Below are positions 678-4,430 of a DNA stretch of 9,461 nt, in pieces (within the stretch, counting starts at the first letter, position 1; each line of letters opens with the position of its first letter). The DNA is from a virus. Its lineage: Duplodnaviria > Heunggongvirae > Uroviricota > Caudoviricetes. Location of the stretch: the IMG/VR virus record IMGVR_UViG_2737471850_000005. One strand, given 5' to 3'. The position numbers were made by a program, and so were the translations under genes. A model generated the notes under the pieces. It did not search any database, was not told where the DNA came from, and saw only the letters and a program-made list of their open reading frames with translations.

Positions 678-1040
678 ATGTTAAAACTTTTTGCTAAGTA
701 CACATCGATTGGCGTTTTAAACACGCTCATTCACTGGGTTGTTTTTGGTGTTTGCGTGTATGGATTGTCCACGAGCCAGGCTTTGGCCAACTTTGCTGGT
801 TTTGTTGTGGCTGTTAGCTTCAGCTTCTACGCTAATGCTCGTTTCACTTTTAAAGCGTCCACTTCAACTTTTCGTTACGTGCTCTACGTTGGTTTTATGG
901 GTGCGCTCAGTGCTGCTGTCGGCTTGGCTGCGGATAGAGTCGGATTGCCGCCAATCATCACATTAGTTGCATTCTCTGCTATCAGCCTTGTATGTGGTTT
1001 TTTCTATTCTAAATTCATTGTCTTTAGGGAAGCGAAATGA
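678..1040 (+). CDS. gtrA: GtrA, bactoprenol-linked glucose translocase (flippase) of O-antigen glucosylation systems
   Basis: 120-aa, 4-TM protein starting [24 protein letters not shown]..., typical of enterobacterial/phage GtrA (E. coli YfdG-like). Its stop overlaps the gtrB start in ATGA (1037-1040). Confidence 0.9.
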
Positions 1041-1969
1041 AGATTTCTCTTGTCGTTCCGGTATTTAACGAAGAGGCTACAATACCGATCTTCTATAAAA
1101 CGGTTCGTGAATTTGAAGAACTTCAAAATCATGAAGTAGAGATAGTATTCATCAATGACGGCAGCAAAGATGCGACCGAATCTATTATTAATGCACTTGC
1201 CGTTGCTGATCCGCTTGTTATGCCTTTATCCTTCACCAGAAACTTCGGTAAAGAACCAGCTCTTTTCGCTGGCCTTGATCATGCCACTGGTGAAGCGGTT
1301 ATCCCGATTGATGTCGACCTTCAGGATCCAATAGAGGTCATTCCTAATCTGATCGAAAAATGGCAGGCTGGTGCAGATATGGTGTTGGCTAAGCGCTCAG
1401 ACCGTTCAACTGACAGCCGCTTAAAGCGGAAATCTGCTGAGTGGTTTTATAAGCTGCATAATAAAATCAGCAATCCAAAAATTGAAGAGAATGTTGGTGA
1501 CTTCCGTCTGATGTCACGAGAGGTCGTAGAGAATATCAAACAGCTACCCGAAAGAAATCTATTTATGAAGGGGGTTCTTTCGTGGGTTGGCGGAAAAACT
1601 GATGTTGTAGAATACGTGCGTGCTGAACGTGTCGCAGGTGATTCTAAATTCAACGGCTGGAAGTTGTGGAACCTAGCACTTGAAGGTATAACAAGTTTCT
1701 CCACATTCCCGCTGAGGATGTGGACATACATTGGATTGTTTGTTGCCGGTCTATCTTTTTTATATGGCGCGTGGATGATTGTAAACACTCTTGCCTTTGG
1801 CAACCCAGTTCGTGGTTACCCTTCGCTCCTTGTTTCAATCCTTTTCCTTGGCGGAATACAGTTGATTGGAATCGGTGTGTTAGGTGAATATATCGGCAGA
1901 ATTTATATTGAAACCAAACAACGTCCAAAATATGTTCTAAAAAATGTCAGGAAAGACAGCAATGACTAA
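1037..1969 (+). CDS. gtrB: GtrB, bactoprenol glucosyltransferase (GT2 family)
   Basis: 310-aa protein starting [13 protein letters not shown]..., with a DxD-type motif (IDVDLQD) and two C-terminal TM helices, as in GT2 GtrB/YfdH. GGGAAG SD upstream; translationally coupled to gtrA. Confidence 0.92.
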
Positions 1970-3380
1970 CGATTCTAAAAATTTAGGAATTTTACTGTTT
2001 GTTGGTTTTTTATATGTGCTCCCTTTCATTATCGGTGGACATTTATACGTAGATGATTTTTTGCGTATAGAGATACCATATGGATGGGATCATAATGGTA
2101 GATATTTTTCAACAGTCCTGTCTAATCTCATTGGCAACGGTCATATTCTAATATTATCTCCATTTACTATGATGATTGCAGCGCTGTTCCTCATTTACCC
2201 TGCACACAAAATCAGCAGTGTATTTTTTGGTAGCGAGTTGAGTTTTGCGAAAGCATCATTTTCTTTATCACTTTTACTATCCCCATTTTTTATAAATAAT
2301 CTTGCCTATCAGTATGATGCAATTTTGATGTCCGCATCTGTAGGCATGGCTGCGATGGCAGCGTACTACTGTTATCTCGGAGTTTCTTCAAAGCTCTTTT
2401 ATGCTACAGCATTCATTCTGCTAATACTGGCAATTTCATCTTATCAGTCATCTATTGCAGTATACTTATCAATTATATTGATACTAGCCATACACAGCAT
2501 GATGTCAGGTAAAGCAACTATTTTTAGTGCTATTAAGTTTTGCGTCATTGCTGGCGTTCTAATGCTTGTTGCATACGCACTATACAAGAAGGTGATTTTT
2601 AACCCCGATGATATGAGTGAGTATACAAAGATGCGCTCTGAAATGCTGGGCATTGACATGTATACGTTAAAAAACATGTTCACCTCCTATCTTAAATTCA
2701 AGGAAATCTTTTATGATTTATTCCATGGGTTTATAGGAAAAATTTTACTTTTGTATGTTACGCTTCCTTTTGCTGTGATTTTATTAAAAAAAGGATTAAG
2801 CTTGCCTGTAAAATTAACGAGTGTTGTTTTTTACTTGTTTATTATCTTCCTTTCCTTTGGCATGCTACTGATTCTAAAAAATCCACCAGTGACCAGTCGT
2901 TCTATGGTTTCGGGCGGAGTGATAATCATGGCATCGACAATGATTATTTTTACTAATATCACCTTTAAAAGGCTTGATTGGGTATCAGTTGTGCCGATGG
3001 TAATATCATTTATTTTTGTAAGCTGTTTCTTCATGCTTCAAAATATAAATTATTCCAGAATTGATAATGTCTTAATGCGTACAAATGCAGTCTTATCGCT
3101 GCAAAATAAAGATTACCAGAAAATTTATCTAAAAATAAACAAACCCAGTTCAGCATCAGAACCATACAGAAAAGCATTTCCTTTCATATACAATATGAAT
3201 AGATACTTCTATACTGGCAATCCTTTCATGGATAAAGTCTCCCATTTAAAACTGGGGTATAGTATCTACCCGTGCGATTCTGGTTGTAAAAAAATAGAAT
3301 CAGATGGAACTGTGAGATTCAACGCTCAAAACATGATATTGAAAGAGCGAAATGGACAAGCAATTGTTATAGTGAACTAA
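1962..3380 (+). CDS. GtrC-like serotype-specific O-antigen glycosyltransferase (polytopic membrane protein)
   Basis: Long multi-TM ORF immediately after gtrB in the canonical gtrABC position; AT-rich. The ATG at 1962 has AGGA 9 nt upstream and overlaps the gtrB stop (ATGACTAA); the track ORF starts at an earlier ATG (1944) with no SD. No conserved catalytic motif recognisable by eye, as is usual for the diverse GtrC proteins. Confidence 0.7.
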
Positions 3381-3387
3381 TTATTTT

Positions 3388-3411
3388 GATGCCAACACTT
3401 TTGTTGGCATC
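3388..3411. repeat. perfect 10-bp inverted repeat (GATGCCAACA-cttt-TGTTGGCATC), potential RNA hairpin or protein-binding palindrome
   Basis: Read directly from the sequence between the gtrC-like stop and the acyltransferase start. Not followed by a U-run on either strand, so not a canonical intrinsic terminator. Confidence 0.5.
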
Positions 3412-3443
3412 ACCTTTGCAAACTCATTAGTGGGCTGATCTAA

Positions 3444-4430
3444 ATGGCAAAAACAGACATTAATAACGGAGTTGTAGTTGCACGTTTTATTGCTATATTG
3501 CTGGTAGTTTTACTACATGCCAGTGCCGGACCTTTCGGGGCTAAACTCGCTCCTGACTGGGAGTGGGCCAATATTTACAGCGCAATATCGAAACAATGCA
3601 TTGGTATTTTCATTGTCATAACTGGCTTTCTCTATGCAAATAAAGAAATTGAGTTTAAAGGCTTCATCCTTAAAGGAATAAATCTCCTTGTAATTCCACT
3701 GGCGTTTTGGTGGGTAATTTACGCAGCATATTTGATACTTTTTAAAAATGCAGGCATAGATAGTTTTAGCCCTATGAAACCATCAAGCATACACCTTTGG
3801 TTTATGTACGATTACATTGCAATTTATCTTTTTGTTCCAATGATAGTTATGGGATGTAGAGAAATAAGAACGCGCTATAGCCTTTTGATATTCGCAGTTC
3901 TGTTTTACAGCACATCCTTATACCCAGAGCTTAATGCAATAGGAATACCCGCTCCGAAGATAAACGTTCCATTTGCAAGTTATTTAATGCTCTATGTTTT
4001 TGCAGGTTACATAGCTGCACGCAAGGAAGATTTAATAATTAAGTACAGGATTGTATTTGCTCTCCTTTCATTGACACTTTCCGTTGTTACCATTTATGTT
4101 AATAAAGGGATAGTTCATGGTGAATACCAAGGAATGAGCTTGAAGAACTTCAGCCCAATGGTAGCTATTACGGCGATAAGTACTACATTTGCTTGCATTG
4201 GTTATGCTAAGAATTTAGCTGATTTGACAAGCCCAATAATAAAAATAATTTCAAAGCATGCATTTGGCATTTATCTAGTTCACCCAATAATTATTTTCAC
4301 TTCATGGAAGTACCTACCAATTACAAATTATGTATGGGGTATTCCTCTGGCAGCAGTATTTTACATTGCATCTTCAATTATCATTGTTAAAATATTTACT
4401 GCAATACCGATTTTGCGAAGAGTCGTCTAA
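3444..4430 (+). CDS. acyltransferase family 3 membrane protein, putative O-antigen O-acetyltransferase
   Basis: 328-aa polytopic protein with an N-terminal ARFIAILLVVLLHA (His-containing TM1 motif), HLWFM and FGIYLVHP motifs characteristic of the acyltransferase-3 (Oac/OafA-like) family. AT-rich like the preceding gene. Confidence 0.75.
   Translation: MAKTDINNGVVVARFIAILLVVLLHASAGPFGAKLAPDWEWANIYSAISKQCIGIFIVITGFLYANKEIEFKGFILKGINLLVIPLAFWWVIYAAYLILFKNAGIDSFSPMKPSSIHLWFMYDYIAIYLFVPMIVMGCREIRTRYSLLIFAVLFYSTSLYPELNAIGIPAPKINVPFASYLMLYVFAGYIAARKEDLIIKYRIVFALLSLTLSVVTIYVNKGIVHGEYQGMSLKNFSPMVAITAISTTFACIGYAKNLADLTSPIIKIISKHAFGIYLVHPIIIFTSWKYLPITNYVWGIPLAAVFYIASSIIIVKIFTAIPILRRVV

Follow-up and report, generated by a model that had tools for sequence, protein, structure and literature searches.

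Candidate O-antigen modification genes in a defective prophage: a gtrABC operon and an acyltransferase gene facing a tail fibre gene

Gene content and base composition of the locus

The DNA analysed here is the IMG/VR virus record IMGVR_UViG_2737471850_000005 (Caudoviricetes), a stretch of 9,461 nucleotides referred to below as the window, and the subject of this report is a row of four plus-strand genes at positions 678-4430 together with the tail fibre gene that faces them from the opposite strand. Three of the four genes are predicted to encode the glucosylation proteins GtrA, GtrB and GtrC, and the fourth a membrane acyltransferase of the acyltransferase-3 (AT3) family. We propose that these genes form two modules, a gtrABC operon and an AT3 gene tied to the tail fibre gene, which probably act on the same O-antigen. 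The features of this part of the window are:

678-1040, plus strand: gtrA, small polytopic protein, proposed undecaprenyl phosphate (Und-P)-glucose flippase (PF04138, E 2e-14; phrog_2224, E 3e-64)
1037-1969, plus strand: gtrB, predicted bactoprenol-phosphate glucosyltransferase of glycosyltransferase family 2 (GT2) (PF00535, E 8e-30; phrog_841, E 2e-166)
1962-3380, plus strand: predicted gtrC-type serotype-specific transferase, 472 amino acids (aa) (PF14264, E 7e-25; phrog_4829, E 1e-37)
3387-3412, plus strand: hairpin with an 11-bp perfect stem and no U tract, between gtrC and the AT3 gene
3444-4430, plus strand: predicted AT3-only membrane acyltransferase (Oac-like), 328 aa (PF01757, E 9e-35)
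4476-6536, minus strand: tail fibre receptor-binding part and C-terminal chaperone domain, aa 127-812 (Peptidase_S74 at aa 697-760)
6537-6914, minus strand: tail fibre virion-attachment N-terminus, aa 1-126, backbone-specific (Tail_spike_N, PF18668)

A sequence-only reading of the window had placed the four open reading frames (ORFs) at 678-1040, 1037-1969, 1944-3380 and 3444-4430 and had named their families; both the positions and the assignments were borne out, with all Pfam matches counted above the curated gathering cut-offs and the PHROG names in agreement. GtrA scores 54 bits against a PF04138 cut-off of 26, and hydrophobic segments are predicted in it; GtrB scores 104 bits with PF00535 and has two C-terminal hydrophobic segments (residues 231-286); GtrC scores 88 bits against a PF14264 cut-off of 30, has its hydrophobic segments within residues 5-362 with none predicted beyond 362, and carries an acidic loop motif that is invariant in four aligned homologues. 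GtrC and the AT3 protein thus both match families of polysaccharide modification, and not unrelated families, the outcome that had been named as telling against such a role. The gtrA and gtrB genes overlap by ATGA at 1037-1040, as noted earlier, and a Shine-Dalgarno-like AGGGAAG is located upstream. The longest gtrC ORF (1944-3380) would encode the 478-aa GtrC-like protein originally described; the ORF and its family hold, and the start is most likely the ATG at 1962, giving 472 aa, because GGAAAG lies 6 nt upstream, because the gene then overlaps the gtrB stop by 8 nt (ATGACTAA), and because three homologues begin with MTN or MKN at the matching position.

The GC content is 0.438 in gtrA, 0.426 in gtrB, 0.343 in gtrC and 0.362 in the AT3 gene, compared with 0.423 in the tail fibre segment for aa 127-812, 0.519 in that for aa 1-126, 0.570 in the capsid gene and 0.54-0.60 in the head genes; the drop is real, with the step at ~1900-1950. 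By total GC, gtrC and the AT3 gene do rank as the window's most AT-rich genes, as had been stated; this fails at third codon positions (GC3), where the receptor-binding part of the fibre (0.355), gtrC (0.340) and the AT3 gene (0.313) make up one class. Since the GC3 of the fibre matches that of gtrC and the AT3 gene, the compositionally foreign block extends from ~1950 to ~6536, past the right edge of 678-4430. In gtr loci generally, conserved A and B genes are followed by an unrelated C gene of lower GC (PMC3688519; PMC7685785), and the same GC steps were measured in phage SfII, so the break between gtrB and gtrC is a hallmark of the gtr family and not a special event at this locus.

Relatives of the two modules and of the tail fibre

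The closest parallel to the window in organization is SfII of Shigella flexneri, in which gtrA, gtrB and a type-specific gtr gene are followed by an AT3 acyltransferase gene, facing the tail fibre genes. The GtrA and GtrB proteins of the two are 80% and 89% identical, and the GC values run in parallel (0.43/0.42/0.32/0.31 in SfII, 0.44/0.43/0.34/0.36 in the window). In SfII, gtrII glucosylates RhaI and oacD 6-O-acetylates GlcNAc of the O-antigen (PMC8973906), and by analogy with this documented system the phage context and the lysogenic conversion role expected of the window genes appear well founded. The specificity proteins differ: GtrII has no significant similarity to the window GtrC (E 0.06) and OacD has none to the AT3 protein. 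An insertion sequence (IS) lies between gtrII and oacD and an integrase gene beside gtrA in SfII, whereas the window has the hairpin in the one place and an SOS-boxed umuD'-like gene pair in the other, and the O-antigen of S. flexneri differs from the one proposed here. The gtrABC operons of P22 and Salmonella are likewise phage-borne, with three genes, conserved GtrA and GtrB and a family-specific GtrC, and relatives adjoin tailspike genes; P22 GtrC is 25% identical to the window GtrC over 337 aa. When GtrC and the AT3 protein were searched by tblastn against 50,697 phage records, only distant matches were detected (P22 GtrC, 25%; phiV10 Oac, 26%). The architecture is thus already known from SfII, and by sequence comparison the specificity genes gtrC and AT3 appear to be new alleles.

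An exhaustive profile-free search of 1.84 billion representatives detected only three full-length relatives of GtrC at E ≤ 1e-30 (31-37% identity), and none was found in species-representative genomes. These three come from gtr(A)BC loci in a Proteus genome, one further isolate genome and one metagenome contig, and compared with the window they are 60-92% identical in GtrA, 84-93% in GtrB and 32-37% in GtrC. In the Proteus and isolate genomes gtrC directly faces a tail fibre or tailspike gene without an AT3 gene between them; in the metagenome contig (L021, short) gtr(A)BC is followed by an unidentified convergent ORF at the contig end.

The relatives of the AT3 gene have different company. 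At 100, 80, 59 and 55% identity all of them are convergent to a Peptidase_S74 tail fibre gene, relatives occur next to the same tail fibre type without any gtr genes, and in phiV10-like (Uetakevirus-type) prophages the gene has the lysis genes on one side and the tail fibre gene on the other, exactly the position of phiV10 oac. Moreover, in E. coli PK5 (L002, 4617-6575) and in locus L015 (6003-7961) a gene for a 652-aa AT3-SGNH protein (OafA-like) fills the gtrABC slot directly upstream of the same AT3-only gene, so that by gene content such strains would have two acyltransferase genes in tandem. Similarity between PK5 and the window breaks at ~606 and resumes at 3458, which is codon 5 of the AT3 gene; in CUPF12 it likewise resumes at 3458. 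Because AT3 relatives occur without gtr genes, GtrC relatives occur without an AT3 gene, and an AT3-SGNH gene can replace gtrABC, the block is best divided into a coupled gtrABC operon and an AT3 gene tied to the convergent tail fibre. The sequence-only reading had treated gtrC and the AT3 gene as cargo acquired together; gtrC instead belongs to the gtrABC operon, in keeping with the general gtr pattern of a low-GC C gene.

The hairpin at 3387-3412, close to this boundary, has a predicted energy of -19.8 kcal/mol (z -4.4), and none of 200 shuffled sequences was equally stable. It was not called as a terminator in a terminator scan, and may be a module boundary or a form of transcript punctuation. 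The corresponding position in PK5, CUPF12 and L015 is taken by a GC-rich hairpin of another sequence (GACGGGCGCAAGCCCGTC), for which reason a stem-loop before the AT3 gene seems to be conserved as a feature, its sequence not being conserved.

The AT3 protein has PF01757 over residues 12-315 of 328 and no other domain, in particular no fused SGNH domain. Characterised AT3 acetyltransferases have an R/K-X10-H motif, located in the first membrane helix, and invariant F and G residues (PMC7448272). In an alignment of the window protein with Sf6 Oac and phiV10 Oac, R14-X10-H25 is invariant, as are F56 and G61 of the FFXISG motif, which reads FIVITG here. Like the window protein, the two Oac proteins are AT3-only, ~330 aa long and encoded convergently to a tailspike gene; phiV10 Oac is 26% identical to the window protein, Sf6 Oac gives no significant pairwise match, and the substrates of the two are different O-antigens.

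Residues 127-812 of the tail fibre are 82% identical among complete fibres (the window family, L010 and L016), the 82%-identical fibres belonging to an E. coli prophage of phiV10-like type next to ppk-yfgI and to a phage contig from a Hafnia metagenome-assembled genome (MAG), and the N-termini of the window fibre and of the L010 and L016 fibres have no similarity. Between the window and phiV10-like (Uetakevirus-like) prophages the DNA of the fibre core is 85% identical and that of the AT3 gene 66%; a single rigid block of AT3 gene and receptor-binding domain was considered and rejected on account of this difference in divergence. Related fibres in contigs that look non-temperate or are differently organised have no AT3 neighbour. 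From these gene neighbourhoods, it appears that temperate phages with this receptor-binding domain also carry an AT3 gene of the window clade.

No deposited phage has a fibre more than 29% identical to that of the window. A structural model of the fibre is a β-propeller with a mean predicted local distance difference test (pLDDT) score of 65.5, residues 40-460 being mostly at 75-94, and its best PDB matches are the receptor-binding proteins of Staphylococcus phages phi11 and 80alpha. The model is of moderate confidence, and only a β-propeller carbohydrate-binding type, no activity, is read from it. Staphylococcus phage receptor-binding proteins, which recognise wall teichoic acid, also resemble the central domain in sequence (tblastn E 8e-16; phrog_22693, E 5e-17). 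The O28ac/O42 O-antigen gene cluster discussed below (L030, 22847-31159) encodes a CDP-glycerol glycerophosphotransferase-family protein and a cytidylyltransferase. Because of the Staphylococcus-type similarity of the fibre and the glycerophosphotransferase in that cluster, a teichoic-acid-like receptor containing glycerol phosphate is suggested, as a lead only.

In the short contig L028, a gene for a 454-aa GDSL/SGNH lipase-domain protein (226-1590) lies directly upstream of a fibre gene (1599-3761) whose receptor-binding part is 51% identical to that of the window. The pair resembles the esterase and fibre pairs of virulent phages, and by that analogy the 454-aa protein might act as a deacetylase against the AT3 modification.

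Association with O28ac/O42 and proposed function

A search for the fibre core and AT3 DNA in 5,426 complete RefSeq E. coli genomes found both in three (C6, E47 and JML285) and the AT3 gene alone in PK5 and CUPF12. The O-antigen cluster of strain C6 is annotated as O28ac/O42, and the wzy gene of C6 is present in 7 of the 5,426 genomes, among them all five carriers of the AT3 clade; there is no carrier among the other 5,419 (Fisher p 5e-16). The association is seen in two different prophage types at two loci. This restriction of the AT3 clade to genomes with the O28ac/O42 wzy gene is a strong signal that the O28ac/O42 O-antigen would be what both the fibre and the acetyltransferase are specific for. 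NCTC9699 is an example of an O28ac/O42 strain in which gtrABC and the AT3 gene are missing. Specificity had earlier been held not to be inferable from sequence; since the AT3 clade and fibre domain are found only in O28ac/O42 genomes, the target is partly inferable after all.

We consider it probable, by analogy with known systems, that gtrABC glucosylates and the AT3 protein acetylates the same O-antigen, and that the two together alter the serotype and hide the receptor from phages with this fibre. From the family assignments, GtrB would use UDP-glucose to charge undecaprenyl phosphate with glucose on the cytoplasmic side of the membrane, GtrA would flip the resulting Und-P-glucose, and the polytopic GtrC would attach the glucose, on the periplasmic side, at a single site in the O-unit. 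The AT3 protein is expected to pass acetyl groups from cytoplasmic acetyl-CoA across the membrane to a hydroxyl of the same polysaccharide. The likeliest target of the acetyltransferase, and likewise the likeliest receptor of the fibre, is the O28ac/O42 O-antigen, and a doubly modified O-antigen would result in a change of serotype and in a block on adsorption by phages with this fibre.

A number of observations weigh against this proposal. Neither GtrC nor the AT3 protein matches a typed allele: the comparison with typed alleles called for by the sequence-only reading gave no close match for either, and direct BLASTP against SfII GtrII and OacD and against Sf6 Oac was not significant. The gtrC allele of the window is in none of the 5,426 complete genomes, the seven O28ac/O42 ones included, and in Salmonella two GtrC families gave no detectable change of the O-antigen (PMC3688519). 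The five AT3 carriers represent two prophage lineages only, so the p-value overstates their independence; in PK5 and CUPF12 the yodB site is ~70 kb from the O-antigen cluster, and hitch-hiking could explain those two. The chromosomal flank of the window is 100% identical in many unrelated genomes and is uninformative for the O-type of the host. Fibre core and AT3 gene, with their 85% and 66% DNA identities, have not moved rigidly as a pair. No match to a plus-strand sigma-70 promoter was found upstream of gtrA in 563-677. Finally, the window AT3 protein lacks RXXR, a loop 2-3 motif essential to Oac, OafA and OafB; K77-G-I-N-L stands in the place of KRARR in Oac and of KRANR in phiV10 Oac.

The RXXR motif is highly, though not absolutely, conserved among AT3 proteins. 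The whole AT3 clade (55-100% identity) has K-G-x-N at the position in question (window 3672-3686, residues 77-81), which may be a tolerated variation or may reflect a different handling of the acyl donor.

Three other explanations were weighed, each less well supported than the proposal of joint O-antigen modification. The four genes might be a single co-acquired and co-transcribed cassette with gtrC and the AT3 gene as one AT-rich cargo, as the sequence-only reading had it: they share one strand, little DNA lies between them, the GC of gtrC is about as low as that of the AT3 gene (0.343 and 0.362), SfII has the same order, and the hairpin without a U tract would permit read-through into the AT3 gene. 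We regard this as unlikely, given that AT3 relatives stand beside the same tail fibre type without gtr genes across phage backbones, that GtrC relatives lack an AT3 gene, that in PK5 and L015 gtrABC is replaced by an AT3-SGNH gene and the homology picks up again from codon 5 of the same AT3 gene that follows, and that a low-GC gtrC beside 43% gtrAB is general. The claim of one cassette is thus given up in favour of two separable modules. More improbable still is that one or both enzymes modify another glycan, such as enterobacterial common antigen, capsule, colanic acid or periplasmic glucans, despite the many substrates on which AT3 proteins act (PMC9558356, PMC9833829), the lack of RXXR in this one, the two Salmonella GtrC families without an O-antigen change (PMC3688519), and a fibre whose receptor is not given by homology (≤ 29% identity to deposited phages). 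What opposes it is the occurrence of the AT3 clade only in genomes with one type of O-antigen polymerase, a gene position that is the same as that of the proven O-antigen acetylases of Sf6 and phiV10, and the 80-89% identity of GtrAB to SfII proteins that serve O-antigen glucosylation.

The genes could also be silent remains of a prophage in decay and without function today, in line with the defective state of the prophage (tail genes deleted at 7177-7184, head genes missing in other isolates), the lack of a promoter match upstream of gtrA and the splitting of the related AT3 gene in PK5 by IS5. Little probability is assigned to this as well: all four ORFs are full length compared with their homologues, their identity is 99.9-100% across four remnants that differ in their rearrangements and have lost structural neighbours, and PK5 and CUPF12 retain almost only the modification genes.

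If joint modification of the O-antigen is correct, its mechanism is not new. The locus offers a clean example of a receptor-binding domain and a presumed receptor-masking gene kept together across podovirus-like and siphovirus-like prophages, with the decoration genes apparently linked to a single pair of serogroups, O28ac/O42, to which enteroinvasive E. coli O28ac belongs. Phage-borne decorations of the O-antigen alter the serotype, vaccine epitopes and phage susceptibility and leave the O-antigen gene cluster untouched, and since that cluster is unchanged, O-typing based on sequence misses them. The O28ac and O42 clusters are almost identical and the serogroups cross-react (PMC4732683). On the ground of that near identity, we raise as a doubtful but possible idea that the prophage AT3 clade, the AT3-SGNH gene and the rare gtrABC are the genetic basis of the serological difference between O28ac and O42, the glucose plus acetyl combination of the window being an unrecognised subtype. 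The yodB-linked remnant could have been carried along with the nearby O-antigen cluster in serogroup exchange.

Setting and decay of the prophage

The remaining features lie at the left end of the window and beyond the tail fibre gene:

1-336, minus strand: UmuD'-like gene, 111 aa, starting about where UmuD is cleaved (phrog_3469, 'UmuD-like')
323-562, minus strand: 79-aa gene, function unknown by phrog_3893; together with the 111-aa gene, the last prophage genes
582-601: LexA (SOS) box TACTGTATGCATATACAGTA, in the divergent intergenic region, adjoining the start of the 79-aa/111-aa operon
607-677, plus strand: left edge of the variable cargo slot and presumed gtr promoter region (PK5 similarity ends at ~606)
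6966-7184, minus strand: truncated tail gene fragment and deletion junction (junction at 7177-7184), where the tail fibre region now meets the head genes

Positions 1-7184 of the window are 99.9% identical to an E. coli contig of assembly GCA_012356715.2 (locus L004), where the region adjoins chromosomal yodB at the prophage end; the chromosomal DNA stops ~128 bp before the window begins, on its left side. Assemblies GCA_012356715.2 and GCA_026238875.1 and sequencing runs ERR135799, SRR8961006, SRR14629616 and SRR30830597 carry the four genes, one identical locus was found in an IMG/VR search, and the whole block is present in none of the 5,426 complete genomes.

The prophage of the window is defective. 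The fragment at 6966-7184 matches the final 71 codons of a gene that in L004 encodes 216 aa, and at 7177-7184 it is joined, at a CGGGTA/CCGGTA microhomology identified by comparison with L004 and L009, to head-tail connector and capsid genes. The deletion is microhomology-mediated; a native gene order at this junction was ruled out, as the junction truncates a gene that is intact in L004. In L004 and L005 the tail genes are present and the head genes are missing. In L009 the AT3 gene is cut at 4112, and in L003 the fibre gene is cut at 5176 next to an HNH gene; these last two rearrangements are possibly assembly artefacts of short contigs. Both gtrC and the AT3 gene are found intact, at 99.9-100% identity, in no fewer than four prophage remnants that have been rearranged in different ways, neighbouring structural genes having been lost, and in PK5 and CUPF12 the modification genes are nearly the sole phage genes remaining, with the AT3-only gene of PK5 split by IS5. 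The modification genes have thus persisted longer than the phage they arrived with. An IS26/qnrS1/aac(3)-IId resistance island borders the region in CUPF12.

At the left end, the minus-strand operon of the 79-aa and 111-aa genes is 98% identical in PK5, whose homology to the window runs through the LexA box. The box has two mismatches to the consensus, and no match was obtained in 200 shuffled sequences. As only 77 nt separate the box from gtrA downstream of it, the gtr operon might conceivably come under SOS control as well. Promoter-like sites in the window are about as numerous as expected from shuffled sequence. A four-GATC signature of Dam/OxyR phase variation is common in Salmonella gtr loci and not universal (PMC3688519); the window differs from these in having one GATC (at 620) in 563-677 against the four required. 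No Rfam families, tRNAs or PADLOC defence families were found in the window. In E. coli Z142-3 (NZ_CP159694.1, 2493901-2495206) a gtrA/gtrB pair with 81% DNA identity lies at what is apparently the same yodB-side site, which suggests that a prophage family with differing conversion cargo uses this site.

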